The notes: generated from the letters alone by a model not told the origin. A stretch of DNA of 64,000 nucleotides from Desmospora activa DSM 45169 (GCF_003046315.1 NZ_PZZP01000004.1:58795-122794), one strand, 5' to 3'. Counted from the stretch's first letter, positions 8,830 through 51,526 are shown. Translations and numbers: made by a program.

Positions 8830-8834
8830 CAACT

Positions 8835-10751: not shown

Positions 10752-10788
10752 CAAAAAAACCACCTGAACATCACGGTTCTGATGGTTT
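10752..10788 (-). terminator. Rho-independent terminator after moaC (end of the moeA-moaA-moaC operon)
   Basis: Imperfect hairpin accatcagaaccgtgatgttcaggtggt followed by UUUUUUUGUUG on the minus-strand RNA. Confidence 0.55.
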
Positions 10789-10797
10789 TTCACCATG

Positions 10798-11304
10798 TTA
10801 AGATTGATGATCGCTCAGCAGTGGACGGTATTTTCGATGATAATCCCCGTTCTTACCGCCGCTCTTGTACACCAGTAGGGTTTCTTCCACCACCATCGAT
10901 CGATCCACCGCTTTACACATATCGTAAAGGGTTAAAGCCGCCGCGCTAACAGCGGTCAATGCTTCCATCTCCACTCCTGTTACATGCTCCGTCTTTGCCT
11001 CAGCCTCAATCAGCAACCGCGTATCGCTTTCCAGCTTAAAGCGGATGTTGACACCACTGAGTGGCACTGGATGGCACATAGGAATCAACTCGGCCGTTTT
11101 TTTGGCAGCCATAATCCCCGCCACTTGAGCAACGGCCAATACATCCCCTTTCGCCATTCTGCCTGCGCGGATTTGCTCCATCGTCTCAGGCTTCATCCGT
11201 AGATGCGCTTGCGCCACGGCCGTTCGCGCTGTTACTTGCTTTCCGGACACGTCCACCATATGTGCCCGCCCTTGTTCATTGATGTGCGTAAATGATGGTT
11301 TCAC
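10798..11304 (-). CDS. moaC: Cyclic pyranopterin monophosphate synthase MoaC
   Basis: 168 aa. MVDVSGK...IPMCHPV...TGVEMEALTAVSAAALTLYDM core motifs. Confidence 0.9.
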   Translation of the reverse strand: MKPSFTHINEQGRAHMVDVSGKQVTARTAVAQAHLRMKPETMEQIRAGRMAKGDVLAVAQVAGIMAAKKTAELIPMCHPVPLSGVNIRFKLESDTRLLIEAEAKTEHVTGVEMEALTAVSAAALTLYDMCKAVDRSMVVEETLLVYKSGGKNGDYHRKYRPLLSDHQS

Positions 11305-11315
11305 TGTGTCGCCTC

Positions 11316-25299: not shown

Positions 25300-25728
25300 T
25301 TAATGCTCCCGCTGTGCAATCGAGCCTCCGCTCTCGCCCGCTGTCACCATCAAAATGGAGCCCATCAGTGCGCTACCCGATAAATACAAGGCATCCGCCA
25401 ATTCGGTATTGATCCTGTATTGAGGGTTGCTGTCATGATGGGAAAAAGGATTTTCTCCCCCATCAGCCGCAATCATATTTTGTACCGCCTGACGGCAGGT
25501 TTCAGATGCCAACATCTTGGGGTAAAGACGTTCAAATGTCGCTGCAACAAATGTATCCCGATCACGTGCCGCCCCCGGCAACTCCTGCCCCTTCATCTCC
25601 GCTTCAACAAAAGCGGCAATCGCCGCTACATCCTCGGGATAACCCTGAAATCGCTTGCCACAGGCAACCGCCATCTCCGTCATCTTCCGGCTTAAATGAG
25701 CAGACACTTCTGCTTGATCCATGCCCAT
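25300..25728 (-). CDS. Hypothetical protein B (142 aa)
   Basis: Start MGMDQAEV with RBS AAGGGAGGA. No recognised domain. Confidence 0.55.
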   Translation of the reverse strand: MGMDQAEVSAHLSRKMTEMAVACGKRFQGYPEDVAAIAAFVEAEMKGQELPGAARDRDTFVAATFERLYPKMLASETCRQAVQNMIAADGGENPFSHHDSNPQYRINTELADALYLSGSALMGSILMVTAGESGGSIAQREH

Positions 25729-25843
25729 TCCTCCCTTTCGCCTACTGTTCGTTCTCATTTTGTCCAGCAAAAGAGGAAACATGCGCAAAAGAGAAAGGAT
25801 TGAGCACAGCGTGCTGAAGCGACGCATTAAAACTTTTCCGCTG

Positions 25844-36776: not shown

Positions 36777-38066
36777 TTATAATAGGGCATCCATCAGCTC
36801 CCGGATTTTGACGATCTCCCTCTTTTCCCTGAATTCAATATCATCATAGGTGATGATTTCTCCTTGAGGGACATGCCGTTTCATCACAACATCCGGGCTG
36901 ATCAAGCCGATAGGAAGAGCTTGGCTTTCTTTTTGTGCCTGAGCGGTCACCAACCGACCATAGGCGGTAAATCCACCCAGCCCATCCAGAGCCTCTCCCA
37001 GTTTTAGCGCTTTTTTCGCCACCGCCACCGTTTCCGACCGATTGCCGTAATGGGGTGCGATCGTCGATTCGCGGTCCAAGTAGGCACGGGCAATGGAGAT
37101 GGGGGTCTCCAGACTGGTCAAGTGATACGGACGGTAGAGGACATAATGAGGACCCTCCCCCATGCTGAGGTACTTCATCTCTTCATGGATTTCGTCCAAT
37201 TCCGTCGTAATGACGGCAAAGACACCAGGAGCGACACCGTTGACATAGTCCACGATTTTCATTCCGTTTAAGATCCCACCTTCTTCCCGCAGGCGAAACA
37301 GCGAAGGAAGATCTTTCACTTGGCCACTGGGACCGTGCATTCCCGCCACATCGGGAAGGAAGCCGGTAGCATTGGAGACGGCATTCATCTCCACCATCGT
37401 CTTGGTGCCGTCTTTAAAGGAAGCTAACATCTTTGGATTCGCTTTTTTTCGGCGGGCTTCTTCCGCGCACGAATCCGGGTTGGCTGAGCGATCCAGCGGA
37501 TTATTTTTTCCTTTCCCCAGCGCGATCACCTCAAAGGAGAGCGCTTCAGCAAAATCGTGCAGTTCCATTAACGCTCCCGGTTCATCCCCCGCGGATCCAG
37601 TATAGACCACACCTGCGGCGTCTGCCACTTTTTTCAGGTAGGGGCCGATCGTCACATCGGCTTCTACATTGAGCATGACGATATGCTTTTTCTGCATAAT
37701 CGCATTCCAGGCCACCATGGCCCCTACATTGGGATGGCCGGTAGCGTCCACGACCACATCCACTTCCTCCAGCCGGGGGATCATCCCGGCATCCGAGGTA
37801 ACAACCACCCGGCCGCTCCGAATCGCCCGGTCAGCCTTCCCCTCATCCTGCGTCTCCAGGATGGCACTTGCGGATACCTTTGCATGCAGATAGGCGTTGC
37901 GCGCGTTTTCCGGCATCAAGTCGGCGGTGGCCACCACATCCATCCCGGCCATCCCGGCGATCTGGGCGATCATGCCCCGTCCCATCTGACCCGCTCCAAC
38001 CAAACCGACACGGATGCGGGCTCCCTGTTTTTGCAAATCTTTTAACCTTCGATTCAGTCCCAGCAT
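36777..38066 (-). CDS. NAD(P)-dependent oxidoreductase, homoserine-dehydrogenase-like with C-terminal SAF domain (COG4091). Candidate sorbitol-6-phosphate dehydrogenase in place of SrlD.
   Basis: Start MLGLNRRL with RBS AGGGGG. Rossmann motif VGLVGAGQMGRGM. The ORF extends 43 codons further upstream without an RBS. Confidence 0.65.
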   Translation of the reverse strand: MLGLNRRLKDLQKQGARIRVGLVGAGQMGRGMIAQIAGMAGMDVVATADLMPENARNAYLHAKVSASAILETQDEGKADRAIRSGRVVVTSDAGMIPRLEEVDVVVDATGHPNVGAMVAWNAIMQKKHIVMLNVEADVTIGPYLKKVADAAGVVYTGSAGDEPGALMELHDFAEALSFEVIALGKGKNNPLDRSANPDSCAEEARRKKANPKMLASFKDGTKTMVEMNAVSNATGFLPDVAGMHGPSGQVKDLPSLFRLREEGGILNGMKIVDYVNGVAPGVFAVITTELDEIHEEMKYLSMGEGPHYVLYRPYHLTSLETPISIARAYLDRESTIAPHYGNRSETVAVAKKALKLGEALDGLGGFTAYGRLVTAQAQKESQALPIGLISPDVVMKRHVPQGEIITYDDIEFREKREIVKIRELMDALL

Positions 38067-38467
38067 GATAGCACCCCCTGATCTCTGACAAAGCGAAGCG
38101 GGGCATTCACATGGATATCTCGAACCGATTTTTCTTCCAAGGCCACTTCTCCGGGAAGATCGGTTTCTGTGCGACCGGTGAAGCGAAGGGTGCAATGACC
38201 GAGATCCCGGAGCGTTTCGTTTGCTTTGCCCCCTACACTGGTCACCTCGTACTCGGTCTCGCCAAGGATAAACTTATCCCCTACCTGGATCTCGTCGTTC
38301 AATGGGGTGACGCGATGGAGCAAGGCCAAGTCATGAAGTTCCTCCGGCGCGTTCTCATGAAAGATGATCAAGGTTTTCTCCTGTTCTACAAAATCGCTTA
38401 CCATGCTGCCGATTTTCGTCACTCGGGAATCCATCAGATATTTCAATATAGACACCTCTTTTTCCAT
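38054..38467 (-). CDS. srlB: PTS glucitol/sorbitol-specific EIIA
   Basis: 137 aa. ...LRDLGHCTLRFTG... matches the SrlB (GutB) signature NLRELGHVTLRFDG. Confidence 0.8.
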   Translation of the reverse strand: MEKEVSILKYLMDSRVTKIGSMVSDFVEQEKTLIIFHENAPEELHDLALLHRVTPLNDEIQVGDKFILGETEYEVTSVGGKANETLRDLGHCTLRFTGRTETDLPGEVALEEKSVRDIHVNAPLRFVRDQGVLSCWD

Positions 38468-39468
38468 TAATCCGTGTACAGTCCAAAACTGAGGAAGTAA
38501 GCGATCAATACCGCTGCAGGGCCGGTAAATAGACGGGAGATCAGCACAGCGGGCACACCCACTTCAATGGTTTCCGGCTTGGCTTCTCCCAAGGTAAGAC
38601 CGACGGGAACAAAATCACAACCCACTTGGGGGTTAATGGCAAACAGAGCGGGTAAAGCCAGTTGCGGCGGGATATTTCCCCGTCCGATCTCCACTCCGAT
38701 GAGCACCCCTACCACCTGGGCGATAACGGCCCCCGGCCCCAACATCGGCGAGAGAAAGGGCAAGGCAGCGACTACCGAGATGATCAACAGCCCGGGGAGG
38801 CTGCCGGCAAGGGGAGAGATCGTGTTGGCGATGATATCCCCGATACCCGTATAGAGAATAATCCCAATTAAAGCGCTTACAAAAGCCATGAAAGGAAGGA
38901 TGTTTTTAATCACTTGGTCGATCGTATCCCGTCCCGACTGATAGAAGACATTGACTACGTTTCCCATCGTTTTGCCCAGCCGGTTCAACCAATTGGGCTT
39001 CACTGGGGCCGCAGCCGGCTCCGGATTCTCTTCCTGCTCAGAGACTTCCGCAGTTGCCGCCACTTCGTCCCTTGAAACGTGGGCTCCCTCCGCCAAATGC
39101 TGAATCTGTTTTACCGTGACACCGGAGACGAAGTTGTCCTCCTGGATATACCTCGCCAGGGGGCCGGAGGGAGAAGCCGCAGTAATATCCACTGTCAGCA
39201 CACCCAGCTTGGGATAGAGGCCACAGCGCGCCGTACCGCCGCAATCAATAATCACACAAGCCATTTCTTCCGGATTCACTTTGTTTTTAAAGGCATCCAC
39301 AGCTTTGCCGCCGGTCATGTCAGCGATCTTCTGCGCGACGGGATGAATACCCCCGCCTGTGATCGAGGCGATAATCGTTTTCTCCTCCGTGGGTTGAATC
39401 ATCAAGGGCCCTCCCCACCCACCGGAGCCTTTTTCCACCTTCACAGCGCGATACTCACTCATGAACAA
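38467..39468 (-). CDS. srlE: PTS glucitol/sorbitol-specific EIIBC
   Basis: 333 aa. EIIB-Gut N-terminal domain (cysteine [13 protein letters not shown]) plus EIIC-Gut membrane domain. Confidence 0.8.
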
Positions 39469-39484
39469 GCCCTCCTTTTATGAA

Positions 39485-40012
39485 TCAGGATTGAACAACT
39501 CGCCGCTTCATCATGAACTTGGTGATATACTCGGTCACAATTCCCCGCAGCAGGATTACGAGTAAACCAACAATAAAGTAGCGGATGGCCAAGGGACCCA
39601 GAGACAGATTGAGCTGGGTAATCCCGGCTGCAATCCCTGTATAGACGAACAATTCTGCCGAGTTCGCGTGGGGAAATAGCCCCGTAATCGGATGGACAAA
39701 AGAAACAGCAGAATCGTAGAAGGCTGGCTTTTGGTTTTCCGGCAAAAATTTACCGAACGTATACGCCATCGGGTTAGTCAGGAAGAATACGGCCAACAAC
39801 GGAAACAGCGTATATCGCAACAATGTAAAACGGGTGCAAAAGCGGGCAAACCGGGTAATCCGCTCTTCCCCCACAAACTTGATGAAAGCATTCACCACCG
39901 TAATCAGGCAGATCAAGGTGGGAATGATTCCAGTCACCAGACCGACAAACGTTTCACCGCCTTTTTGGAACATTCCAATAAACCCTTCTGCCAGATGGAC
40001 AAAGAAATCCAT
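39485..40012 (-). CDS. srlA: PTS glucitol/sorbitol-specific EIIC2 (SrlA)
   Basis: 175 aa membrane protein (MDFFVHLAEGFIGMFQKGGETFVGLVTGIIP...), SrlA family. Confidence 0.75.
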   Translation of the reverse strand: MDFFVHLAEGFIGMFQKGGETFVGLVTGIIPTLICLITVVNAFIKFVGEERITRFARFCTRFTLLRYTLFPLLAVFFLTNPMAYTFGKFLPENQKPAFYDSAVSFVHPITGLFPHANSAELFVYTGIAAGITQLNLSLGPLAIRYFIVGLLVILLRGIVTEYITKFMMKRRVVQS

Positions 40013-40032
40013 ATCCTTTTCCCCCTTTCGGA

Positions 40033-40422
40033 TTAGACCGCTGCTCGCGTCTGACGCGCCTCCTCCACCTTTTCAACAGCCATATTGAGCGCCTGTTCCC
40101 AGGAGGTTCGCGGCTGAATCTCTTTCAAATCCTCAACCACCTTTCCCACCAGGGAGGGCTCATCACGAAAGCGAGCGAAAACGGAGACACCGGCCAATTT
40201 GCGGCAATGGGTAACCACACCCGCCGGATCGGTAACCAGGATGGCTACCGCCCCGGCCCCCCATCGGTTTTTGCGCACACCCACTCCCAGATAGCCGGAA
40301 GACTGACGCTGCAACTCAAAAAGTTGCCGCTGATAGTGGCGCGATTGCAACAATGTCAGGCTGCCCTGGATAACCCAAAACAGGACAAACAATAGAATAA
40401 ACATCCCCCATGTACCCATCAT
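40033..40422 (-). CDS. gutM: Glucitol operon activator GutM
   Basis: N-terminal TM then ...SGYLGVGVRKNRWGAGAVAILVTDPAGVV...VFARF. Start MMGTWG with RBS AAGGAGGG. Only about 12 nt separate it from the E2 stop. Confidence 0.7.
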   Translation of the reverse strand: MMGTWGMFILLFVLFWVIQGSLTLLQSRHYQRQLFELQRQSSGYLGVGVRKNRWGAGAVAILVTDPAGVVTHCRKLAGVSVFARFRDEPSLVGKVVEDLKEIQPRTSWEQALNMAVEKVEEARQTRAAV

Positions 40423-40433
40423 TTCTCCCTCCT

Positions 40434-41723
40434 TCAAACGAGCAAGATTTCCGGTTGTTCCAGCGTTTGCTTAACGGTCTGTAGGAAGCGGGCGGCAGGT
40501 GCTCCGTCCAGCACCCGGTGGTCAAAGGAGAGGCTAAAGGTCGCGATCGGGCGCAGTTTGATCTCCCCGTCAACCCCTACGGGCTTTTCCTTGATGCGGC
40601 CCACTCCCAGAATTGCAGATTCCGGCTGATTGATGATCGGTGTAAATCCATCCACTTCATACATGCCCAGATTGCTGATGGTAAAAGTGCTTCCCGACAG
40701 TTGATCCGGTGTCAACGTTTTCTCGCGGGCCGCTTGGGCCAACTCCTTGCACTCCTGGGTCAATTGAGCCAATCCTTTACGGTTGGCGTCTCGGATAACG
40801 GGAACCAGAAGCCCCTCTTCCACGGCGACGGCCAAGCCCAAGTGAATATGCGAATGGCGTAGGATCTCTTTCCCCTGCAAGGAAGCATTCACTTCCGGAT
40901 GCTGTTTTAAGGCGAAGGCGCAGGCTTTCAAAATGAGTTCTGTGTGGGACAGACGATACCCCGTCTGTTGTTCCACCACCTCCAACAACTGCTGACGTGT
41001 CTCGATGGCAGCACCCATGTCCACATCAGTAAATAAGGTAACATGGGGGGCACTAAAAGCGCTCTCCGCCATCCGTCGGCCTACGGTTTCCCTCATTCCC
41101 CGATAAGGGATGATCTCTCCTTGCGACTTTTGGGAAATCTCTCTAGACAAGGACGGCTTGTCCATTGACTTGCGGGTGGCGTATACTTCCACGTCTTCGC
41201 GGTGGATTCTCCCTTTTCGCCCTGAACCCGTCACCTCGTGTAAGAAAACCCCCAATTTTCGAGCAGTCCTGCGGGCGGAGGGAGTGGCACGAATCGTTTC
41301 CAAACCCGACAGAGGCGCTTCTGGGACTGCAACGGTAGACTTTGGCGTCGTTACGGATGCCCCTTTTGCACCACTGAACCCTTCCTTTCGGGGGAGTGCT
41401 GATGAATTTTGCCTAAGCTTGGACACAGAAGATTCCAACTCCAATTCATCTTGCTTGGATGGCCGCCCTTCTGGCACCACCTCCCCTTCCTCTCCGATAT
41501 AGCCGATCACTTCGTTAACGGCGACTTCCTCATCGGGCCCGTGAAGAATGCGCAGCAGCGTCCCCGATGTGTAGGCCTCCACTTCGATATTGATCTTGTC
41601 CGTCATCACTTCCAGAATCGGCTCCCCTTCCTCTACAGGGTCACCCGCTTCTTTAAACCATTGCAGAATTGTCCCTTTTTCCATCGTCATCCCCAACTTT
41701 GGCATCCAGATCGCTTGAGCCAT
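40434..41723 (-). CDS. acoC: Dihydrolipoamide acyltransferase E2 component of a 2-oxoacid (acetoin/pyruvate-type) dehydrogenase complex
   Basis: Lipoyl domain (EVMTDKINIEVEA), E3-binding domain, catalytic domain (SFDHRVLDGA). Confidence 0.85.
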   Translation of the reverse strand: MAQAIWMPKLGMTMEKGTILQWFKEAGDPVEEGEPILEVMTDKINIEVEAYTSGTLLRILHGPDEEVAVNEVIGYIGEEGEVVPEGRPSKQDELELESSVSKLRQNSSALPRKEGFSGAKGASVTTPKSTVAVPEAPLSGLETIRATPSARRTARKLGVFLHEVTGSGRKGRIHREDVEVYATRKSMDKPSLSREISQKSQGEIIPYRGMRETVGRRMAESAFSAPHVTLFTDVDMGAAIETRQQLLEVVEQQTGYRLSHTELILKACAFALKQHPEVNASLQGKEILRHSHIHLGLAVAVEEGLLVPVIRDANRKGLAQLTQECKELAQAAREKTLTPDQLSGSTFTISNLGMYEVDGFTPIINQPESAILGVGRIKEKPVGVDGEIKLRPIATFSLSFDHRVLDGAPAARFLQTVKQTLEQPEILLV

Positions 41724-41738
41724 GTTGTCTCCCCCCTT

Positions 41739-42725
41739 TCATATCACCTTGGCGACCATCTGTTCAATCGCCTGGACGATGTCCTCTTCCTGTGGCACGG
41801 CGGCTTTTTCCAACTGCGGATTGTAAGGGATAGGCACTTCCTTGCCACCCAGCCGAACAATGGGAGCGTCCAGATAATCGAAAGCTTCGCTCTCAGCGAT
41901 CATGCTGGCGATTTCCGCTCCGTATCCACCCCGTTTTACCGCTTCATACACCACACAGGCGCGCCCTGTCTTCTTCACCGATTGGATCATCGTCTCCTCA
42001 TCCAGCGGCACCAGGGTACGAGGGTCTACCACCTCCACCTCGATCTCTTTTTTCGCTAAGATCTCTGCCGCTTGCAAGGCTTTTGGCACCATGATGCCGG
42101 TGGCGATGACGGTGACATCTGTTCCCTTTCGTTTCACTTCCGCTTTTCCCAAAGGGATGGAGTAGGGCTCCTCTGGTACCTCGCCCTTTGTTTTGTACAG
42201 GAGTTTATGTTCATAAAAAATGACGGGGTTATCATCCTCGATGGCAGCCTTTAGCAGTCCTTTTGCATCGTAGGGAGTGGAGGGCTGCACCACCTTTAGA
42301 CCGGGTACGTGGGCCACCCATGCTTCTAGGCTTTGCGAATGTTGCGCCGCCGCCCCGGTGCCTGAGCCGGAGGGGGTGCGAACCACCATCGGCACCTTTG
42401 CTTTGCCGCCAAACATATACCGCATTTTAGCCGCTTGATTAACCAGTTGGTCCAGTGCAATGGTGATAAAGTCAGAAAACTGAAGCTCCAGCACCGGCCG
42501 CATGCCCGTCAAGGCGGAACCTGCCGCCGCACCGGCGAGGGCGGATTCGGAAATCGGCGTATCCCGGACCCGTTCTTTTCCTAGCTGTTCCTGCATACCG
42601 CGAGTAACACCGAAAGCACCGCCGTAGATACCGATATCCTCTCCAAAGAGAAAAACGTCCGCATCTGCTTCCATCGCTTGTGTCAACGCTTCACGAACCG
42701 CTTCCAAATACGTAATCTCCCGCAA
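41739..42725 (-). CDS. acoB: 2-oxoacid dehydrogenase E1 beta subunit (transketolase-like)
   Basis: 328 aa. ...[20 protein letters not shown]... E1-beta family. Confidence 0.85.
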
Positions 42726-42739
42726 CAGCCATCCCTCCT

Positions 42740-43720
42740 TTATGCAAAAACATCTTCTTCCAACGACTTCAGGGGTGGAAACGGACTCTCCTCAGCGAAT
42801 CGCACCGCCTCTTCAATCTCCTCTTTCGCCTGTTTCCGAACCGCTTCCGCCCGATCTTCATCTAAGATGCCCTCCTGAATCAATTGTTCCGTGTACCGCT
42901 TAATCGGATCGCGCCTGTTTCGCCACTCCTGCTCTTCCTCGCGGGTACGGTATTTCTTGGCGTCGCTCTTGGAGTGTCCTTTCCAGCGATAGGTTTTTGC
43001 TTCGATCAGAGTGGGACCGTCTCCAACACGTGCTCGTTCAGTCGCTTCTGAGACCGCTTTCATTACTGCAAACAAATCATTACCGTCGATGGTAACGCCG
43101 GGAATGCCGTATCCCAATCCCCGCTCCGAGATATTTTTCACCCGGAACATCTCCTTGGTGGAACCGGACATGCCATACTGATTATTTTCACAGATAAAAA
43201 TAACGGGTAGGTCCCAGATCGCCGCCAAGTTGATCGATTCGTGGAAGCTCCCTTCATTGGCCGCCCCATCTCCGAAGAAACAGATAGTCACATAACCGAG
43301 ATTTTTCAGTTTAGAAGTTAGCGCCGACCCCACAGCGATGGGAATACCCCCTCCCACAATACCGTTGGCACCCAAGTTACCCAGGTCCAGATCGGCGATA
43401 TGCATCGAGCCCCCTTTTCCTTTGCAATAGCCCGTCTCCCGACCAAAGAGTTCTGCCATCATCCGCTTGACATCCGCCCCTTTGGCGATGCAATGTCCGT
43501 GTCCCCTGTGAGTACTGGTGATTTTGTCCTTCGGTTGCAACACCGCACACGCCCCAGCGGCAGTTGCCTCCTGTCCCACGCATAGGTGTGTTGTTCCGTG
43601 AATCGCCCCTTTGGCAAAAAATTCGTCCACTTTTTCGTCAAAATACCGAATCAACCACATCTGATGGAGCAATTCCGGGAGAAGTTCCCTTTTGATCGGA
43701 AGTGTATCCATGGAGATCAA
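42740..43720 (-). CDS. acoA: 2-oxoacid dehydrogenase E1 alpha subunit (TPP-dependent)
   Basis: 326 aa. TPP motif [28 protein letters not shown]. Confidence 0.85.
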
Positions 43721-43744
43721 TTTGTCTCCCCCCTCACACTTGAA

Positions 43745-43758
43745 TGTTATCGCTTACA
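43745..43758. promoter_or_regulatory. Catabolite-responsive element (cre, CcpA site) in the 5' leader of the aco/gut operon
   Basis: TGTAAGCGATAACA on the minus strand. It fits every position of TGWAANCGNTNWCA. It lies about 40 nt downstream of the predicted TSS. Confidence 0.65.
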
Positions 43759-43802
43759 TTTTACAAATGTTCATTTCAGTTACATTTGTTAAACTCACCT
43801 TC

Positions 43803-43831
43803 ATGCTATGAATTTGACAGAAGATTGTCAA
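43803..43831 (-). promoter_or_regulatory. Sigma-A promoter of the acoABC-gutM-srlAEB operon (TTGACA-17-TAGCAT). The -35 is embedded in a perfect palindrome TTGACA-gaagat-TGTCAA (43814-43831), a candidate operator.
   Basis: Minus strand: -35 ttgaca (plus 43826-43831), 17-nt spacer, -10 tagcat (plus 43803-43808). Confidence 0.55.
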
Positions 43832-43989
43832 TGGAAAATATAAGAAAAAAAGAGCCTTGTCGCTCAAGACCAACACGATTTTCTCCTCTGGATCGACGAT
43901 TTGGCCGGCCTGCAACAATTTCTACAAGAAAATGATCCCAACCCCTCCAAACCGAATGAAGCGATAGCATACAAAAACACCCCGCCGAA

Positions 43990-44019
43990 TAGCGGGGTGT
44001 TTTTGTATGCGGTTGTTTC
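43990..44019. terminator. Bidirectional rho-independent terminator (ends the DeoR-regulator/rhamnose transcript)
   Basis: aaaaacaccccgc-cgaata-gcggggtgtttttg. Confidence 0.8.
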
Positions 44020-44062
44020 AGTTGATATGGACATGATTTATCCACGCTAAATGGTATTCACT

Positions 44063-44827
44063 CTACTCCACCCTCTGCACAGGCAGTCCCCTCTCACTCA
44101 ATCGCTGCAACACCTGGGGAGAGGATTGGGTATCGGTGATGATTGCATCGATCTCTTTCCAATCTGCAAAAACGGCGAAGGTCCTTCTATCAAACTTACT
44201 GTGATCAATCAACAAGGTACTGTGGTCGGCGATGGCGATCATCCGCCGTTTCAGCTGTGCTTGCCATTCGTTGGAGTCGCTTAAACCACTTCTTAAATCG
44301 GCTCCTCCGCAGGAGAAGAACAGTTTGTTTACATGGTATCCTTCCAAGGAGCGCTCCGCCAAAGGGCCGATATACGACAAGGAACGCGGTGATAAAGCTC
44401 CTCCGGTAGAGATTACTTGGATATGCATGCGATCGGCCAATTCGACCGCCACTTTGATGGAGTTGGTTAAAACCGTCAAGGGTATATCCGACAACAACCG
44501 TGCCATTTGCCAAGCGGTGGTGCTGGCGTCAAGAAGGATGGTATCCCCTTCTTCCACTCGTTTTACCGCTTCCCGAGCAATGGCTGTCTTTTCGGTGACA
44601 TAGGTAATCTCCCGCTCCTGGAAGGATGTCTCCCGCTCCCCATTTTTCTTCAGGGTGACGGCCCCGCCGTGACTGCGGAGCAATTTCCCCTGAGACTCCA
44701 ACCGTTCCAGATCCCGACGGATGGTTTCTTCCGTCACCCCAAATCGTTTCGCCAATTCGGTGACGCGAATACTCCCCTCCCGATCGACACTCGCCACAAT
44801 CTCATGGCGCCGTTCCGCGACTAACAT
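44063..44827 (-). CDS. rhaR: DeoR-family transcriptional regulator, rhamnose operon repressor RhaR-like
   Basis: N-terminal HTH (VTELAKRFGVTEETIRRDLERL) plus DeoR C-terminal sugar-phosphate domain. Start MLVAERR with RBS GGAGGGAAGGG. Last gene of the rha operon, as for B. subtilis RhaR. Confidence 0.8.
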   Translation of the reverse strand: MLVAERRHEIVASVDREGSIRVTELAKRFGVTEETIRRDLERLESQGKLLRSHGGAVTLKKNGERETSFQEREITYVTEKTAIAREAVKRVEEGDTILLDASTTAWQMARLLSDIPLTVLTNSIKVAVELADRMHIQVISTGGALSPRSLSYIGPLAERSLEGYHVNKLFFSCGGADLRSGLSDSNEWQAQLKRRMIAIADHSTLLIDHSKFDRRTFAVFADWKEIDAIITDTQSSPQVLQRLSERGLPVQRVE

Positions 44828-44864
44828 TCCCTTCCCTCCACTACTTTGCAATTCCTGTCACTCC

Positions 44865-46331
44865 CTATCTTATCACCTTTTGAAACCGTTCATAATGGTC
44901 ATCCCAGCGTTCGGTTTGCGCTGGTTCGTAAGTTTTGCGGGGGAAAGAACGAGCAACCAACCTCCGCCCCTCTTCCAAGGAGGAGATTTCCTTGGCCGCC
45001 AGCAATTGCATCAGCAAATTACCGATGCCGCTGGCTTCCACCGGACCCGCAACTACTGGACGTTCACACGCGTTCGCCGTCCATTGGCACAGCGACCGAT
45101 TCTGTATGCCTCCCCCTACCATGTGCAACACTTCAATCTTTTTCCCGATCAATTCTTCCAACCGTTCCAACGTCCATCTGTATTTAAAAGCGAGGCTCTC
45201 GGTAACTGTTCGCAGTAGGGACCCGTCGGAGATTGGAATTGGTTGTCCGCTTTCTGAACAGGCGTTTCGGATACGGTCCGACATCGACCCCGAAGCCAAA
45301 AAGCGTCGATCATCGGGGTCAACAAAGGCAAGGAAAGGCGGTTCTTCTGCCATCAGCTCCGTCATTTCTTCCCATGTATAATCCTTTCCCTGTCTCTCCC
45401 ACTCCCGCTTAATCTCCTGCAATAACCACAACCCCATGATGTTTTTTAAAAACCGAAACGCCTCTACTCCCCCTTCATTGGTAAAATTGAGGGCAAGTGC
45501 ACGCTCGGAACAAATGAGACGATCCACTTCCGTTCCCAGCAGAGACCAGGTTCCACTGCACAGATAGGCGGAAGGCTGCGATCCGGAGGGAACCGCTGCA
45601 ACCGCTGATCCGGTATCATGAGTCGCCACCGCGATCACATTGATCCCCGTTGCTCCCAATTCCGCCGCCACCGCCGGCATCAGTTTGCCGAGATTGGACC
45701 CTGGAGAGACGACATCGGTAAACAGTTGCTCCGAGATGTCCAAGGCTTTCAGCAGAGTGGAAGACCAGGTGTTTTGCACTGGGTTGAACAGTTGGGTCGT
45801 GGTGGCGTTGGTATACTCGGTCACTTTTTGACCGGTTAAAAAATAATGAAAAAGATCGGGTATCATCAGAAGGGTATCCGCTTGCTCCAAATGTAAATCA
45901 TTCGCTTCCTTTAGCGCCGCCAGTTGGTATACAGTGTTAAAGGGGAGAAATTGAATCCCCGTCTCCCGAAAAATCTCGCCGCGCGGTATCCTTTGGGTCA
46001 CTTTTTCCATGATGCCATCGGTACGGCGGTCCCGGTAGTGAACCGGGTTTCCCAACAGGCGTCCCTTGCTGTCCAACAAACCAAAATCGACCGCCCATGT
46101 ATCGATTCCTAGGGATGCAATCGGCTCCCCTTCGTGACAAACCCGGCGAATTCCCTGTTTTACATGGTGGAATAGACGCAAAAAATCCCAATGCATCGTC
46201 TGATGCACGGTTACCGGTTCATTTGCAAACCGGACTTTCTCCTCGACTGCAAGCCGTTCTCCGTCAAATGTACCGGCCAAAAGACGTCCACTCGCCGCAC
46301 CTAAATCGACGGCCAATCCCTTCCACGCCAC
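44865..46331 (-). CDS. rhaB: Rhamnulokinase (FGGY carbohydrate kinase)
   Basis: 488 aa. AVDLGAASGR N-terminus, FGGY N and C domains. Operon context. Confidence 0.8.
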   Translation of the reverse strand: MAWKGLAVDLGAASGRLLAGTFDGERLAVEEKVRFANEPVTVHQTMHWDFLRLFHHVKQGIRRVCHEGEPIASLGIDTWAVDFGLLDSKGRLLGNPVHYRDRRTDGIMEKVTQRIPRGEIFRETGIQFLPFNTVYQLAALKEANDLHLEQADTLLMIPDLFHYFLTGQKVTEYTNATTTQLFNPVQNTWSSTLLKALDISEQLFTDVVSPGSNLGKLMPAVAAELGATGINVIAVATHDTGSAVAAVPSGSQPSAYLCSGTWSLLGTEVDRLICSERALALNFTNEGGVEAFRFLKNIMGLWLLQEIKREWERQGKDYTWEEMTELMAEEPPFLAFVDPDDRRFLASGSMSDRIRNACSESGQPIPISDGSLLRTVTESLAFKYRWTLERLEELIGKKIEVLHMVGGGIQNRSLCQWTANACERPVVAGPVEASGIGNLLMQLLAAKEISSLEEGRRLVARSFPRKTYEPAQTERWDDHYERFQKVIR

Positions 46332-46372
46332 TAACCTTCCCCCTTTCCGTTATATAACATTCAACCATTTCT

Positions 46373-47599
46373 TCACCAACTGGCCCCTCCCACGCCGCGA
46401 TCCTGGATCTTCTCTACGTAACCGCTTTCTAAAAACGCCTTCATCGGCTCCGGCGGCAGCCCCCTCTCTTCCCGTACCATGTGCAACAGGGGTTCCACAT
46501 CCTGCTCAAACGCTTCCCTCACCGCCGCTTCCGCCCGCAAGACATCCAAGTCAACCTGCGCCTCCTCCAACTCCTTCCAGTTGATGAGAAGAGCTTTGGC
46601 ATACAAGGTTTGCACATTTAACACCGACCGAATCATCGCCGGAATCTTCGGTTCAATGTTGTGACTCTGGTCGATCATATAAGCGATGCGCTCCGCCGTC
46701 CTGCGTGCACCGGCGTTTTCTTCCTCCCGTAAAGCGGCCACGATTTGATAGAAGATCAGAAAGATTTCATAGGGATTGGTGGTTCCCACAATCAAGTCGT
46801 CATCCGCATATTTACGCCCATTGAAGTGAAATCCGCCCAGCCGTTCTTCGTCTAACAGATACGCCACGAGATGTTCCACATTGGTTCCCTGGGGATGATG
46901 GCCCGTATCGACCAGAACCTCCGCCTGAGGGCCCAATTTGGTTGCCAGATTGAAAGCCATTCCCCAGTCGGCCAGATCGGTATGATAAAAAGCCGGCTCA
47001 AAAAATTTATACTCAATCAGGAGTCGCATTCCTTGATCCAGCTCCCGGTAGGTCTCTCTAAGCGCCTCCTCCATCCAGCGCTTACGCTTACGAATATCAG
47101 CCTGCCCTGGATAATTGGTGCCGTCCGCCAGCCATAAGCTGACGATGTCCGATCCCACTTCCCTGGCGATTGCGACACATTCCCGTAAATGCGCCGTCGC
47201 TTTGCGCCGGATCGCTTGATCGGTATGGGTGATGCTCCCCAACATATAATCATCATCTTGAAACAGATTTGGATTGACGGCACCGATCTTAATGCCGAGG
47301 GACTCGGTGTGTTCACGCAAGCGGCTGTAATCGTCCACTTTGTCCCAGGGGATATGAATCGCCACACTGGGGCTTAATCCGGTAAAGCGGTGCACTTGTG
47401 CGGCGTCTTCCATCTTTTCAAAGGTCGTTCGGGGAACACCCGCTTTCTTAAACACCTGAAAACGAGTGCCTGAATCCCCGTATCCCCAGGAAGGGGTCTC
47501 GATTTTAAGCTGTTTCAACCGTCGCTTCACTTCTTCCAACGATATCCCACGATCCGCTTGATGGGCTTCAAACACTTGTATCCTTGCATCGTTTATCAT
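46373..47599 (-). CDS. rhaA: L-rhamnose isomerase (Bacillus type)
   Basis: Start MINDARIQVF with RBS AAGGAGG. Collinear with B. subtilis RhaA/YulE (ISLEEVKRRLKQLKIETPSWGYGDSGTRF...). Confidence 0.8.
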   Translation of the reverse strand: MINDARIQVFEAHQADRGISLEEVKRRLKQLKIETPSWGYGDSGTRFQVFKKAGVPRTTFEKMEDAAQVHRFTGLSPSVAIHIPWDKVDDYSRLREHTESLGIKIGAVNPNLFQDDDYMLGSITHTDQAIRRKATAHLRECVAIAREVGSDIVSLWLADGTNYPGQADIRKRKRWMEEALRETYRELDQGMRLLIEYKFFEPAFYHTDLADWGMAFNLATKLGPQAEVLVDTGHHPQGTNVEHLVAYLLDEERLGGFHFNGRKYADDDLIVGTTNPYEIFLIFYQIVAALREEENAGARRTAERIAYMIDQSHNIEPKIPAMIRSVLNVQTLYAKALLINWKELEEAQVDLDVLRAEAAVREAFEQDVEPLLHMVREERGLPPEPMKAFLESGYVEKIQDRGVGGASW

Positions 47600-47618
47600 C
47601 GACCTTCCTCCTTTTGTT

Positions 47619-49706
47619 TTATCGTGTGAAAGCGGCGGGCACTCCGCCATCCACCGTTATCATACACCCCGTCGTCTTCGCCGCTTTCGATGAAGCCAAA
47701 TACAGAACGGTCTCTGCGATATCATCTGGATAGACATTGACCTGGAGAAGCGTTCGTTTGCGGTAATACTCTTCCAATTGATCCGGCTCAATGCCATAGG
47801 CCGCCGCCCGCTCTTCCCGCCAGCGGGAAGTCCAAATAGCGGAGCCGGACAAAACCGCATCGGGCAACACCGTGTTGACGCGTATCCCGTATGGGCCGCC
47901 TTCTGCCGCAATACAACGGGCCAAATGAGCCTCCGCCGCTTTGGCCGTGCTGTATGCCGCGGCATTTTTGCCTGCATATACGGAATTCTTTGAACCGATG
48001 AAGACCATGTTGCCCCCTAATCGTTGTGTTTTCATCAGGGCGAAGGCCTCCCGCGCCACAAGAAAATAGCCGGTGGTTAAAACATTGAGGTTCCGGTTCC
48101 ATTCATCGAGAGATGTCTCTTCCAAAGGGCTGGAGGTGGCCAAGCCGGCGTTATTCACCAAAATGTCGATCCCGCCAAAGTGGTTGACAGCTTCTCCGTA
48201 AGCCGCTTTCACCATCCCTTCATCTGTCACATCCATGCCGATGGACACAGCTCGCTTTTCTCCCGTTTGCTCGTTTAACTCATGGGCCAACTGGGCTGCA
48301 CCCTCCTGATTTAAATCGGCCAAAACCACATGGGCACCTTGTTGTACCAACTTGCGTGCGGTGGCACCGCCGATTCCACCCGCTCCCCCTGTGATAAAAG
48401 CCACCTGCCTGGAGAATTCTGCCTCGGGCGGGGCGAGGGAAAGCTTATACAACTCCAATGGCCAATATTCCACATCAAAGGATTCCTTCTCATTTAAGGA
48501 GACAAAACTTCCCAGCACCGAGCTTCCTTTCATCACCGCAATCGCCCGCTGATACAGCTGTCGGCTGATATCGGCCATTTTTTTGCTTTTGCCTGTCGTC
48601 ACCATCCCGATGCCGGGGATGAGAATGACACGGGGAACCGGTTCAAACATCGCATCACCGTCCTGCTGATTCCGCTCAAAATAGTTTCGGTAATCGCTTT
48701 CATAACGATTGATTCCTTCTTCCATGCGCCGCTTCAATTCCCTTGTATCATGCTCAGCGGGATCCCAATCCACATACAGGGGCAGCCGTTTGGTATGGAC
48801 GAGATGGTCGGGGCACGCCGCCCCCACCTGAGACAAACGGGGAGCATCCACGCTATTGACAAAATTCATCACCGCATCGCTGTCATCCACACTTACAATC
48901 ATTCGCTTCTCCCGGCTGACCCGGCCGCGAATCAGAGGTAGGATCGCAGTGAGGATCGCTTTTCTTTCATCAGTGTTGAGAGGTTTCGCCTTTTCGCCGT
49001 TAAACAATTGCTCGCCAACACTTTTTACACGTGTCTCAATATAATCTTCCGCCGCTTGGATCACCTTCATCGTCGATTGATAACATTGCTCCGAAGTCTC
49101 TCCCCAGGTTACCAACCCGTGTTTTTCCATCAGGACCAACTCTGCCTGCGGGTTCGCTCGTACCTTTTCTCCGATTATTTTTGACAATTGGAACCCTGGT
49201 CGGATATAAGGAACCCAGACAAAGCGGTCGCCGTAGATCTCCCGTGCGATCGCCTCCCCGTCTTCCGTGCAACAGATACTGACGATCGCATCAGGATGGG
49301 TGTGATCCACATGGTTAAAAGGGAGAAAAGCATGCAAAAGGGTTTCAATCGACATGCGCGGATGTTGGCTGTCCATCATACAATGGCGGAGATAAGCAAC
49401 CATCTCCTCATCCTCCATCTCATCCCGTTCAAACAAGGGCAGTACATCATCCAAACGTAAAGCGGTGAAATGTTCCGACTTCATCGTCGCTAAGTCGGCT
49501 CCACTTCCTTTCACCCACATCACAGCGACTTCCTGCCCCATGAAGTCCCATTCCACGGTCTTCATCGAAGTATTTCCTCCGCCCCAGTTGGCGACGGAAC
49601 GGTCTTGCCCCAATAAATTGGAACGGTAGACCAGCTCCTCTATTCCCGTAAGTGGTGCCGCTTTTTCCTGCTCCCATAAATTCACCGGCAAAAAAATCCC
49701 CTCCAA
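47619..49706 (-). CDS. rhaEW: Bifunctional rhamnulose-1-phosphate aldolase / short-chain dehydrogenase (RhaEW, YuxG-like)
   Basis: 695 aa. N-terminal class II aldolase/adducin domain. C-terminal SDR (ITGGAGGIGGATARKL, YSTAKAA). Confidence 0.85.
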   Translation of the reverse strand: MEGIFLPVNLWEQEKAAPLTGIEELVYRSNLLGQDRSVANWGGGNTSMKTVEWDFMGQEVAVMWVKGSGADLATMKSEHFTALRLDDVLPLFERDEMEDEEMVAYLRHCMMDSQHPRMSIETLLHAFLPFNHVDHTHPDAIVSICCTEDGEAIAREIYGDRFVWVPYIRPGFQLSKIIGEKVRANPQAELVLMEKHGLVTWGETSEQCYQSTMKVIQAAEDYIETRVKSVGEQLFNGEKAKPLNTDERKAILTAILPLIRGRVSREKRMIVSVDDSDAVMNFVNSVDAPRLSQVGAACPDHLVHTKRLPLYVDWDPAEHDTRELKRRMEEGINRYESDYRNYFERNQQDGDAMFEPVPRVILIPGIGMVTTGKSKKMADISRQLYQRAIAVMKGSSVLGSFVSLNEKESFDVEYWPLELYKLSLAPPEAEFSRQVAFITGGAGGIGGATARKLVQQGAHVVLADLNQEGAAQLAHELNEQTGEKRAVSIGMDVTDEGMVKAAYGEAVNHFGGIDILVNNAGLATSSPLEETSLDEWNRNLNVLTTGYFLVAREAFALMKTQRLGGNMVFIGSKNSVYAGKNAAAYSTAKAAEAHLARCIAAEGGPYGIRVNTVLPDAVLSGSAIWTSRWREERAAAYGIEPDQLEEYYRKRTLLQVNVYPDDIAETVLYLASSKAAKTTGCMITVDGGVPAAFTR

Positions 49707-49792: not shown

Positions 49793-51526
49793 TTACAATG
49801 ATGGGGTTCTTGATGATACGCTTTCTTTACTCTGTTCCTTTTTACCGATCCAGATGGTAGCGGATACAAAATAGATTAAAGACGGAACGAGGGCGAGTGC
49901 CTTATACTCGTCCAATTCCATCATTCCTGCAAACACTGCTCCTGCCATCCCTAACAATGCCAAAATCGCCAACAAAGCAGATGCACCGGCCACTTTTATC
50001 CTCGTGGAAGATATTTGCGATCCGGGATGGGGTGAAATCCCTTCGGCTTCAATTGCTTGTTCCTGTCTAATTTGTTCCTGGCGCTGTTTTTCCTCTCTTT
50101 CCGCTTCCGGATACTGTTCTCTAGCTCCCCCCAATCCCGCCAAGATAAGATAAGCCACCATCGTCACCACCCAGGTGGGTACAAACAAAAAGTAGAGGTG
50201 GATGATCCCGAAAGTATCCATGCACACGGCGAAAGCAACGCCGATCATCCAGCTGGCCAACGCTGGCACATTAAGGCGCAATCCCTTGTATTGAGCCCAA
50301 TACCGTGTATAGCCGATTTTGGGAAAGATCCAATGTTCGGTAAAAACAATGGTGCCAACGGGAACTAAGATCAATCCCATGTATCCGACAAAATCCAGCA
50401 GCTTGGTAAACACAAAGGGAAAACAGGCGATAACAGTGGTAACGGCGCCGGTAATGGCGGTTACCCTTCTGACGGAGTAGCGGTGGAAAATCGTTTGAAA
50501 TGCGAGTCCCGCCCGATACAAGGTAGGGTTAGAAGTAGTCCACCCGGCAATGATCACAGCCAAGATCCCAACGGCTCCCAAAGCTTGATAGGCGACTTCA
50601 CCGGAATCTAACTGAGCGATCGACGTATTTAACACCATCGCGGCGGCAGCCCCCATAATCCCGGCACAAATCCAAGCGATGTAATGTCCGAAAAAGACGC
50701 CCACGGCGGAAGCGTACCCATAGCGATAACTTTTGGCAAACCGAAAGATAGCCATATCGCTCAATCCTCCATGCATCGCCAAGTTGGCGATCCAGGCAAA
50801 CGCCATCACATGAAGCATCCCCATCTCTTCCCCGCCACCCATTGGTTGACCGGTCCAGATATGAGCGTTAGCCAGCTGGAGGAAATCTGAAACCGAGTGC
50901 AATCCCGAGACGGTACCACTCATTGCAACCAGCTCCGGCAGCATTACCACGGCGCCGCTAATAAACATCAATAACAGCCATGGCGCACAGATGGAAGAAA
51001 ATTGAGCGACGGATTTAAAGCCCATCGCAGCCACAATGGCGACGATGGAGCCAATGATCAAGACGAGAAAGATAAAAGAAGCGCTTGTTGGATACCACTG
51101 CGTTTGCACCGGAATCCCAAACAAAATCCGGACGGCGGAAGCGGCAACGGTGATCATTGCTCCACCCAGTACGCAGTACAACACACCGTTAACCGCATTG
51201 TATACTTTTTGCATGGATGGACCGGCGATCTTTTTCAAATACGAATAAAGCGTCAAACGAGTATCGGTGGCAATCGGCGCACAAATAAACGTCCAAGTCA
51301 ACACCGCCAGCAAATTACCGAAAATCAATCCCAGCAAGACGTCCGCAGCACTTACTCCCCACAGAACAAACGTCGCCCCGATCACAAACTCCGTGCCGGC
51401 TACATGCTCCCCCGCAAACAACCCGAGAAAGTGTCGCAACCCATGCAAACGGTGCTTGGCGATAGGTTTGTCCTCCTGTGGCAGTTGACCGGTATCCAGT
51501 GTCCCTGCCGTGTAACCCAGTTTCAT
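49793..51526 (-). CDS. Large polytopic permease (577 aa, 13-14 TM), first gene of the rhamnose operon. Putative rhamnose transporter; the fold resembles NCS1/solute symporters.
   Basis: RBS GGAGAGGA. Hydrophobic throughout with a charged coiled segment (EQYPEAEREEKQRQEQIRQEQ) before the last two TMs. Only 86 nt upstream of rhaEW. Confidence 0.55.
   Translation of the reverse strand: MKLGYTAGTLDTGQLPQEDKPIAKHRLHGLRHFLGLFAGEHVAGTEFVIGATFVLWGVSAADVLLGLIFGNLLAVLTWTFICAPIATDTRLTLYSYLKKIAGPSMQKVYNAVNGVLYCVLGGAMITVAASAVRILFGIPVQTQWYPTSASFIFLVLIIGSIVAIVAAMGFKSVAQFSSICAPWLLLMFISGAVVMLPELVAMSGTVSGLHSVSDFLQLANAHIWTGQPMGGGEEMGMLHVMAFAWIANLAMHGGLSDMAIFRFAKSYRYGYASAVGVFFGHYIAWICAGIMGAAAAMVLNTSIAQLDSGEVAYQALGAVGILAVIIAGWTTSNPTLYRAGLAFQTIFHRYSVRRVTAITGAVTTVIACFPFVFTKLLDFVGYMGLILVPVGTIVFTEHWIFPKIGYTRYWAQYKGLRLNVPALASWMIGVAFAVCMDTFGIIHLYFLFVPTWVVTMVAYLILAGLGGAREQYPEAEREEKQRQEQIRQEQAIEAEGISPHPGSQISSTRIKVAGASALLAILALLGMAGAVFAGMMELDEYKALALVPSLIYFVSATIWIGKKEQSKESVSSRTPSL

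Follow-up and report, generated by a model that had tools for sequence, protein, structure and literature searches.

A Conserved Operon Joining DXR-II, a Glucitol-Type Phosphotransferase System and an Acetoin-Dehydrogenase-Like Complex: A Possible Catabolic Route for Methylerythritol

Introduction

A 64-kb stretch of DNA from Desmospora activa DSM 45169 (Thermoactinomycetaceae), referred to as a whole as the window, carries on its minus strand a tightly packed operon of ten open reading frames (ORFs). It combines the E1alpha, E1beta and E2 subunits of an acetoin-dehydrogenase-like complex with a glucitol-type phosphotransferase system (PTS), an oxidoreductase of group COG4091 and a SorC-type regulator. 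Judged by its sequence, the oxidoreductase is a DXR-II (DRL) enzyme, that is, an alternative deoxyxylulose-5-phosphate reductoisomerase (DXR), with predicted activity on DXP (1-deoxy-D-xylulose 5-phosphate) and MEP (2-C-methyl-D-erythritol 4-phosphate). We propose that the operon encodes a catabolic route from 2-C-methyl-D-erythritol (ME) via MEP and DXP to acetyl-coenzyme A (acetyl-CoA) and glyceraldehyde 3-phosphate. This proposal, in which the imported substrate, the direction of DXR-II and the substrate of E1 are deduced from gene content, has in our judgement somewhat more in its favour than against it. That DXR-II and E1/E2(/E3) would act consecutively in one polyol-phosphate catabolic route, be it for ME or for a related compound, we regard as quite probable.

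The component families are all known. What seems to be new is the pathway itself, together with the notion that DXR-II works in reverse and that an acetoin-dehydrogenase-like complex accepts a sugar phosphate: a literature search covering few subscription journals found no paper tying DXR-II to a PTS or to an E1/E2 complex, and none on ME catabolism.

Results

The first-pass annotation of this DNA had described the oxidoreductase as a homoserine-dehydrogenase-like SAF-domain enzyme replacing the sorbitol-6-phosphate dehydrogenase SrlD. The lack of SrlD could be confirmed (see below), but the enzyme belongs to the DXR-II/DRL family, for which the interconversion of DXP and MEP is the known reaction (PMC3847144). 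Residues 2-429 match the Brucella abortus DRL structures 3UPL and 3UPY with E 5e-101, and identity to Brucella DRL amounts to 42% in a MAFFT alignment. Higher values were obtained for BH0774 of B. halodurans (63%) and for a protein of Thermosediminibacter oceani (58%), both of which Carretero-Paulet et al. (2013, PMC3847144) place in the DXR-II clade. The same study sets DXR-II apart from two related oxidoreductase families, DLO1 and DLO2; 11 members of the DXR-II clade complement dxr mutants, whereas the tested DLO members fail.

Among the residues reported there as critical, K191, K193 and T229 serve the binding of substrate and fosmidomycin, E174, F178, R320 and Y322 the dimer, and G121 and H250 mark the divergence of the families. 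The window protein keeps G121, E141, D143, D167, E168, K191, K193, T229, E232, H250, R320 and Y322 (Brucella numbering), and E174 and F178 are likewise identical in the MAFFT alignment. A DLO-like homologue from Deinococcus, which shares 37% identity with the window protein, has other residues at positions 168, 174, 193, 229, 250 and 320. Placement in the DXR-II clade rather than in DLO1 or DLO2 was judged by pairwise identity to listed members and to one DLO-like protein. Gene context lies outside the published DXR-II analyses, and PMC3847144 mentions neither sorbitol nor phosphotransferase.

The genes and signals of the operon are, in the direction of transcription:

43831-43803, minus strand: promoter-like site TTGACA-17 nt-TAGCAT (consensus scan, 10/12 matches, best in the region)
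43790-43761, minus strand: two operator-motif copies, AACAAATGTAA and GAACATTTGTAA, at a spacing of 19 nt, downstream of the -10 box and ahead of the E1alpha ribosome-binding site
43758-43745, minus strand: cre-like site TGTAAGCGATAACA, candidate CcpA catabolite-repression box (read from the sequence)
43720-42740, minus strand: E1alpha, thiamine diphosphate (TPP)-binding subunit of the acetoin-dehydrogenase-like complex, DXR-II-linked clade (Pfam E1_dh, 4.5e-96)
42725-41739, minus strand: E1beta (Pfam Transket_pyr and Transketolase_C)
41723-40434, minus strand: E2 dihydrolipoamide acyltransferase (Pfam Biotin_lipoyl, E3_binding and 2-oxoacid_dh)
40422-40033, minus strand: GutM-type activator (Pfam GutM, 1.1e-21)
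40012-39485, minus strand: SrlA, PTS EIIC of the glucitol family (Pfam EII-GUT, 9.5e-78)
39462-38467, minus strand: SrlE, PTS EIIBC of the glucitol family (Pfam EIIBC-GUT_N and EIIBC-GUT_C)
38467-38054, minus strand: SrlB, PTS EIIA of the glucitol family (Pfam PTSIIA_gutA, 3.7e-35)
38066-36777, minus strand: NAD(P)-dependent reductoisomerase of the DXR-II/DRL family, the "COG4091" gene (Pfam DRL_cat, PF21135, 2.9e-67)
36748-35741, minus strand: SorC/DeoR(Bsu)-family sugar-phosphate-binding regulator (Pfam Sugar-bind, PF04198, 2.4e-70, and an N-terminal helix-turn-helix)
35793-35458, minus strand: conserved small ORF with a zinc ribbon (homologues in related loci)
35335-35312, minus strand: intrinsic terminator, GC-rich hairpin followed by T8 (terminator scan)

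The ten ORFs follow each other head to tail between the promoter-like site at 43831 and the terminator at 35335-35312, the sole convincing one found by the terminator scan on the minus strand downstream of the promoter-like site. From E1alpha to the small ORF the gaps are 14, 15, 11, 20, 22, -1, -13, 28 and -53 nt, the start of the DXR-II gene overlapping the end of srlB by 13 nt. The joint occurrence of E1alpha/E1beta/E2, gutM-srlA-srlE-srlB and the COG4091 gene, as first annotated, was reproduced with strong Pfam and NCBIfam family matches for all of them. Several proteins of the window are identical to entries in the genome records of D. activa DSM 45169. At the E2-gutM junction the gap, given earlier as 12 nt, measures 11 nt to the first ATG and 14 nt to the ATG used by NCBI. 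AGGAGG precedes the gutM start and the terminator scan gave no hairpin in the 11-nt gap, in line with the claim that gutM has its own ribosome-binding site and follows without a terminator. The SorC-type regulator and the tenth gene lie beyond the segment that had been delimited at first. Upstream, a strong terminator at 44000-43971 divides the operon from rhamnose genes; beyond the 35335-35312 terminator, convergent SPFH and ABC-transporter genes follow.

Catalytic motifs are readable in the E1alpha sequence (GDG...NN, TPP) and in E2 (DHRVLDG, catalytic, and TDK with the lipoyl lysine). An E3 homologue was searched for by tblastn with the E3 of a relative as query and is missing from the 64-kb window, as had been stated before. 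An Rfam scan of the whole window showed no riboswitch or leader RNA in the operon; its matches were 12 tRNAs elsewhere.

Of the glucitol-type PTS proteins, SrlA and SrlE exceed the NCBIfam equivalog cutoffs for the sorbitol PTS (NF049923, 235 vs 150; NF049924, 496 vs 400), while SrlB (92.7 vs 165) and GutM (38 vs 148) stay below theirs. Identities to the E. coli proteins are 49% (SrlA), 51% (SrlE), 34% (SrlB) and 27% (GutM). Searches with E. coli SrlD, GutQ and SrlR gave generic or unrelated matches only. For SrlD the best match in the window is the short-chain dehydrogenase/reductase (SDR) half of a rhamnose aldolase/SDR fusion (33%), and no orthologue was found near DXR-II in any of 91 loci, where matches were generic SDRs of at most 33% identity. 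A DeoR-type SrlR/GutR is likewise absent from the operon, the regulator being SorC-type by its Pfam Sugar-bind match. This agrees with the earlier description; the nearby DeoR-type gene at 44851-44063 lies beyond the terminator and belongs with the rhamnose genes.

In several distant genomes a second PTS of the galactitol/ascorbate type (EIIA_2, IIB and EIIC-GAT) is located beside or inside the module (L007:5728-7849; L081:1-2028; L082:4169-6291; L083:1-1139; L090:13806-16004). In Planifilum such a Gat-type PTS separates gutM from srlA. Its substrate may be a second, related compound.

The E1 genes had been named acoA and acoB. This naming does not hold, since judged by sequence they constitute a sister clade of AcoA/AcoB and are not orthologues. 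E1alpha remains below the equivalog cutoffs for E1alpha of pyruvate dehydrogenase (PDH; TIGR03182, 385.6 vs 393.85; TIGR03181, 268 vs 411), and E1beta passes the looser subfamily model NF006667 (400.7 vs 321). Human PDH E1alpha is the closest solved relative of E1alpha (238 bits). As a reference for AcoA served a Bacillus E1alpha-E1beta-E2-E3 locus without DXR-II (L092), which shows 98% identity to proteins bearing the name acetoin:2,6-dichlorophenolindophenol oxidoreductase subunit alpha. Canonical AcoA proteins are 73-98% identical across genera, compared with 47-56% to the DXR-II-linked E1alpha. A neighbour-joining tree parts the two groups and unites Bacilli, Clostridia and Alphaproteobacteria in the linked clade; both paralogues coexist in Brevibacillus, Priestia and Paenibacillus ginsengihumi. 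Between the window and the rhizobial DXR-II-linked subunits E1alpha is 57% and E1beta 63% identical, so that E1 is more conserved than DXR-II itself (42%). The corresponding value for E1beta and Bacillus AcoB is 52%.

The linked clade and AcoA are discriminated by 24 positions of E1alpha. Some of them lie within active-site motifs. H41, T43 and T44 of the linked clade stand against P, F and V in AcoA. Directly after His249, the linked clade has S250-K251-S252 and AcoA F-E-G. His249 aligns with His263 (mature numbering) of human PDH E1alpha, the catalytic residue of that enzyme. K251 is a candidate phosphate contact, and a pocket that is more polar and has gained a lysine would accommodate a phosphorylated substrate with several hydroxyl groups.

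The only studied member of this clade is found in C. difficile, where the operon, published as an acetoin pathway under the name "acoRABCL" (CD0035-CD0039; L093, NZ_CP149721.1, locus 6010-11930) encodes E1alpha and E1beta with 52% and 63% identity to the window proteins; its E1alpha is 71% identical to a Clostridial DXR-II-linked E1alpha. An acoA mutant of C. difficile was unchanged in acetoin level and in growth on acetoin (bioRxiv 10.1101/2023.07.28.551048). This suggests that the "acetoin" operon is misnamed and that its true substrate may not be acetoin.

Conservation was investigated in a scan with one genome per species, which yielded at least 441 relatives; the best 80 of these loci were analysed by tblastn with the window proteins. 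Beside DXR-II, gutM-srlA-srlE(-srlB) was found in 73/80 loci. E1alpha, E1beta and E2 together lie within 10 kb of DXR-II in 64/80, and a further 7/80 contain partial E1/E2/E3 at the locus edge. The SorC-type regulator has a homologue in 72 and the small ORF in 51 of the 80 loci. E3 (Pyr_redox_2 and Pyr_redox_dim) directly follows E2 in 59/80 and is missing only in Thermoactinomycetaceae (window, Planifilum, Seinonella), Salinicoccus and a few others. As most relatives carry E3 in this position, its lack points to a lineage-specific loss. The module was observed in at least 12 gene orders, with the E1 unit upstream, downstream, divergent, or between srlE and srlB. A linkage that survives at least 12 rearrangements is a classic signature of functional coupling.

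The module also occurs in Clostridia (Thermosediminibacter, Tepidanaerobacter, Maledivibacter, Thermovorax) and around BH0774. In Sinorhizobium meliloti Rm41 and S. fredii NGR234, genes for DXR-II, E1alpha, E1beta, E2, E3 and a SorC-type regulator are clustered on plasmids, in Rm41 together with lipA. Their DXR-II proteins share 70-73% identity with the Brucella enzyme, which has been characterised by biochemistry and structure. No PTS is present there; a divergent ABC transporter and a PfkB-family sugar kinase adjoin. Going by the gene content, uptake and phosphorylation have apparently been replaced non-orthologously, with the DXR-II/E1 core being kept. In Pseudoroseomonas a gut-type PTS accompanies DXR-II, E1alpha and E1beta. 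The E2 of Aminobacter and Pseudoroseomonas comprises lipoyl, E3-binding and alpha/beta-hydrolase parts and is named by NCBI as the acetoin-dehydrogenase acetyltransferase type. This AcoC-type E2 points towards acyloin cleavage and not 2-oxoacid decarboxylation. Conservation in Bacilli, Clostridia and Alphaproteobacteria supports the second option of the first-pass annotation, a new coupling. As to its substance, acetoin oxidation and hexitol uptake are probably both incorrect: because the enzyme is DXR-II and E1 is not AcoA, the imported compound is unlikely to be a hexitol, and acetoin is unlikely to be what E1/E2 acts on.

Divergent DXR-II proteins, 44-46% identical to that of the window, were detected in Listeria innocua (L085, 7790-12604) and on the megaplasmid of Ligilactobacillus salivarius (L086, 9004-16578); neighbouring genes encode GutM, a SorC-type regulator and a PTS of the gut type. 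The next genes in L. salivarius are fsa (fructose-6-P aldolase) and tkt (transketolase). In Maledivibacter halophilus, ispF (YgbB, 2-C-methyl-D-erythritol 2,4-cyclodiphosphate synthase; L083:17384-17857) is located two genes past the module, after HPr and the small ORF, a position that could be fortuitous or could hint at a connection with MEP metabolism.

The promoter-like site is located 83 nt 5' of the E1alpha start and 3' of the rhamnose-gene terminator. An assignment to sigma-A, not sigma-54, had been made. Its negative half stands, as no sigma-54 -24/-12 match was found in 43721-44062 upstream of E1alpha; the sigma-A-like call rests on position and not on statistics, because such matches are not enriched over shuffles (5 found, 7.5 expected). 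An operator motif with the consensus GAACAAATGTAAA precedes both the E1 and the PTS units of related loci, often in two copies about 19 nt apart. For loci where E1alpha or gutM start separate units, its 8-mer ACAAATGT/ACATTTGT was found upstream of E1alpha in 44/67 and upstream of gutM in 31/52. The density in these upstream regions is 3.45 per kb, 26-fold above the background of 0.13 per kb. Because the motif is common to both units, the E1 genes and those for PTS/DXR-II seem to be controlled as a single regulon.

In the 64-kb window the 8-mer occurs three times, two of the copies being those at the operon. The third copy of ACAAATGT, at 25547-25554 on the plus strand, lies inside an ORF (25300-25827) and has probably arisen by chance. 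Repressors of the SorC family typically have tandem operators, and the pair at 43790-43761 is the presumed binding site of the SorC-type regulator. The cre-like site TGTAAGCGATAACA fits the Bacillus cre consensus TGWAANCGNTNWCA. It appears to be a local feature of D. activa, as it is conserved in only 1/67 of the E1alpha upstream regions of relatives. GutM and the SorC-type regulator at the GAACAAATGTAAA operator would control expression, with a possible contribution of CcpA at the cre box.

The small ORF of about 100 amino acids combines an N-terminal CxxC...H...CxxC zinc ribbon with a basic C-terminal tail (KPxR...PxR...KPxR) and has no significant match to a Pfam family. Homologues are present in 55 related loci from Bacilli and Clostridia, always within the PTS/DXR-II/E1 module (for example L003:12413-12769 and L084:11417-11758). 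Directly upstream of the operon, a rhamnose-type catabolic set (44063-49706, minus strand) codes for a regulator of the DeoR type, a kinase of the FGGY family, an isomerase whose TIM barrel resembles that of xylose isomerase, and a class II aldolase/SDR fusion; it appears unrelated to the operon. A 577-aa ORF at 49793-51526 (minus strand) has no Pfam match at E <= 0.001, and the 12 tRNA genes form two arrays at 5204-5582 and 8144-8908 (minus strand).

Discussion

In the proposed pathway the glucitol-type PTS, elsewhere the ABC transporter with the PfkB kinase, would take up ME and phosphorylate it to MEP. DXR-II, working in reverse, would convert MEP into DXP. DXP (CH3-CO-CHOH-CHOH-CH2OP) shares the acyloin group CH3-CO-CHOH- with acetoin, and E1alpha-beta/E2 could cleave it oxidatively between C2 and C3 to acetyl-CoA and glyceraldehyde 3-phosphate. 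In D. activa the E3 subunit would be borrowed from another complex. The first two reactions of the MEP pathway would in this way be traversed backwards. Given E3 in trans, the encoded proteins would suffice for the whole route; its products belong to central metabolism, and no further enzyme is needed. Uptake of the proposed substrate has a precedent, as the sorbitol PTS of Salmonella is documented to take up ME, with functional MEP as the product (Testa, Cornish and Poulter 2004, J Bacteriol 186:473, cited in PMC3994034).

The assignment of the cleavage step follows from the chemistry. Because one NAD(P)-dependent step cannot make a 2-oxoacid from a polyol phosphate, E1/E2/E3 is expected to act in the manner of acetoin dehydrogenase (R-CO-CHOH-R' to acyl-CoA and aldehyde). 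The use of a lipoamide-dependent complex can be rationalised as well, since the missing C1 hydroxyl of DXP would preclude a non-oxidative split of the phosphoketolase type. The irreversible oxidative cleavage could in turn pull the unfavourable DXR reversal.

Two further functions of the complex were considered and rejected. A PDH that uses the pyruvate released by the PTS does not fit, as the linkage persists where uptake is by an ABC transporter and a kinase. A 2-oxoacid dehydrogenase is discounted because a polyol phosphate cannot give a 2-oxoacid in one oxidoreductase step, and it is further opposed by the AcoC-type E2 in relatives.

Several observations speak against ME as the substrate or against the proposed chemistry. 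SrlA and SrlE lie above the sorbitol-PTS equivalog cutoffs and are about 50% identical to the E. coli proteins, hence sorbitol uptake is possible. A Gat-type PTS often accompanies the module. DXR-II occurs with the PTS and without E1/E2/E3 in Listeria and Ligilactobacillus, and with an ABC transporter and no E1 in Phyllobacterium; these subgroups have either another fate of DXP or another substrate. The equilibrium of DXR favours MEP, as seen in the kinetics of the E. coli enzyme, and an E1 of the acetoin-dehydrogenase type is not known to act on a phosphorylated acyloin. The full-text search mentioned above, with its limited coverage of subscription journals, found no report of bacterial growth on ME. 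Among Firmicute DXR-II proteins, that of Finegoldia magna is the only one that the text of PMC3847144 confirms as individually tested.

The same logic could apply to a different imported compound, for instance 1-deoxy-D-xylulose, a 1-deoxy or 6-deoxy polyol, 2-methylthreitol or another branched tetritol. Uptake and phosphorylation would then be followed by a DXR-II-type oxidation or rearrangement to an acyloin keto-sugar phosphate and by its oxidative thiolytic cleavage through E1/E2/E3. The linkage evidence applies equally to this case, and the repeated presence of a Gat-type PTS, which hints at more than one substrate, as well as the Listeria/Lactobacillus subgroup without E1 would be in accordance with it. 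We nevertheless consider it unlikely, if worth keeping in view. The window enzyme keeps all fosmidomycin and substrate-contact residues of Brucella DXR-II and falls into a clade whose tested members all make MEP, ME/MEP being the only known substrate pair of the family. Further, the catabolism of imported deoxyxylulose would not require DXR-II, which nevertheless accompanies E1 invariably. An ordinary sorbitol operon, with the DXR-II-like enzyme as a non-orthologous sorbitol-6-phosphate dehydrogenase and a merely co-transcribed acetoin or pyruvate dehydrogenase, is improbable. The SrlA and SrlE scores, the presence of GutM and the database gene names are in its favour, and without SrlD the use of sorbitol would need some dehydrogenase. 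However, E1/E2(/E3) accompany DXR-II on the rhizobial plasmids even without a gut-type PTS, the operator is common to E1 and PTS genes, and the linkage persists through at least 12 rearrangements. E1 is a paralogue distinct from and coexisting with true AcoA, and the C. difficile member of its clade shows no acetoin phenotype. Fructose-6-P, moreover, needs no further dedicated enzyme, which would leave E1/E2/E3 without a role.

A biosynthetic or salvage function, in which ME or deoxyxylulose is scavenged to make isoprenoids, thiamine or pyridoxal, would require DXR-II to run forward and E1 to act as a carboligase like DXP synthase (DXS), joining pyruvate and glyceraldehyde-3-P to DXP. DXR-II complements dxr mutants and is the sole DXR in Brucella, ispF lies near the module in Maledivibacter, and E. 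coli PDH E1 mutants can supply the first step of the MEP pathway (PMC3424233). A carboligase would, however, need no E2, E3 or CoA transfer, and these are conserved (E3 in 59/80 loci). High-capacity uptake, control by a sugar-phosphate repressor and the presence of a cre box all typify catabolic systems; the rhizobia that carry the module on accessory plasmids already have complete MEP pathways, and Finegoldia has DXR-II but nothing downstream of MEP. Such a function is therefore very improbable. Hardly credible is a chance juxtaposition without functional coupling and with a transcript boundary between E2 and gutM. It would draw on the fact that the promoter and terminator calls are consensus matches only, not enriched over shuffles, and is opposed by the 11-nt gap without hairpin, the shared operator motif and a linkage found in 64-71 of 80 species and across phyla.

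The ME pathway favoured here would have consequences for the understanding of DXR-II. The coexistence of DXR-I and DXR-II has been called an unexplained redundancy; DXR-II is the only enzyme of the MEP pathway in Finegoldia magna and Anaerococcus prevotii, and Chloroflexus has an active DXR-II yet only the mevalonate pathway (PMC3847144). According to a 2026 review, no defining pattern of DXR-II distribution has emerged (PMC13001223). A primary role in catabolism would explain the coexistence with DXR-I, the occurrence without an MEP pathway and the patchy distribution. Whether widespread ME catabolism is indeed the primary, possibly ancestral role, with the biosynthetic use in Brucella and Bartonella arising secondarily after loss of DXR-I, we see as evenly balanced. 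It offers a testable answer to a question on DXR-II distribution that has been open since 2010 and was restated in 2013 and in the 2026 review.

If the pathway is true, a function could be assigned to a module with relatives in at least 441 stretches of species-representative genomes. It is now annotated as a sorbitol PTS, a "pyruvate/2-oxoacid dehydrogenase" and a "SAF-domain/homoserine-dehydrogenase-like protein". The oxidative cleavage of a sugar-phosphate acyloin would be a new reaction class for complexes of the 2-oxoacid-dehydrogenase type. For isoprenoid engineering a DXP-cleaving complex would be an unwanted drain or, alternatively, a useful tool. Listeria and C. difficile are among the pathogens that possess DXR-II, an enzyme of lower sensitivity to fosmidomycin. 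Methylerythritol is a sugar alcohol of plants and microbes, and the pathway would constitute a sink for plant methylerythritol and possibly for isoprene-derived 2-methyltetrols.

Comparison with Known Systems

With the srlAEBD-gutM-srlR-gutQ operon of E. coli and Salmonella the window operon shares the SrlA, SrlE, SrlB and GutM families and the order srlA-srlE-srlB. It differs by the lack of SrlD, of the DeoR-type SrlR and of GutQ, and by the presence of DXR-II, a SorC-type regulator, E1/E2 and the zinc-ribbon ORF.

AcoABCL of B. subtilis and AcoABC of proteobacteria are similar in having a heterotetramer-type TPP-dependent E1alpha/beta and a lipoyl E2, and some relatives of the window module use an E2 of the AcoC type with an alpha/beta-hydrolase. 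The proposed chemistry is alike, with CH3-CO-CHOH-R being cleaved oxidatively to acetyl-CoA and an aldehyde. In contrast to AcoABCL, the window operon has no AcoL, no AcoR and no sigma-54 promoter, its regulator is of the SorC sugar-phosphate type, and the proposed substrate is not acetoin but the sugar phosphate DXP. The C. difficile acoRABCL operon has a SorC-type regulator as well, located in front of the E1 genes; unlike in the window, no DXR-II or PTS is adjacent in the record examined.

DXP synthase and phosphoketolase depend on TPP as well; they form or split the bond between C2 and C3 in a skeleton of the xylulose-5-phosphate type, the partner being glyceraldehyde-3-P. Formally, the proposed E1/E2 step would reverse the DXS reaction in an oxidative manner, and it would be a 1-deoxy counterpart of the split made by phosphoketolase. 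Both enzymes are single proteins, work without lipoamide and share only a distant TPP-enzyme fold, whereas the window complex would pass the acetyl group via lipoyl-E2 to CoA.

The closest parallel for the DXR-II protein is DRL of Brucella abortus (3UPL, 3UPY), with which it has the fold, the DRL_cat family and the named active-site and dimer residues in common. There, the known role is biosynthetic, from DXP to MEP in replacement of DXR-I; the window gene is part of a PTS/E1/E2 operon, in which it is proposed to convert MEP into DXP.

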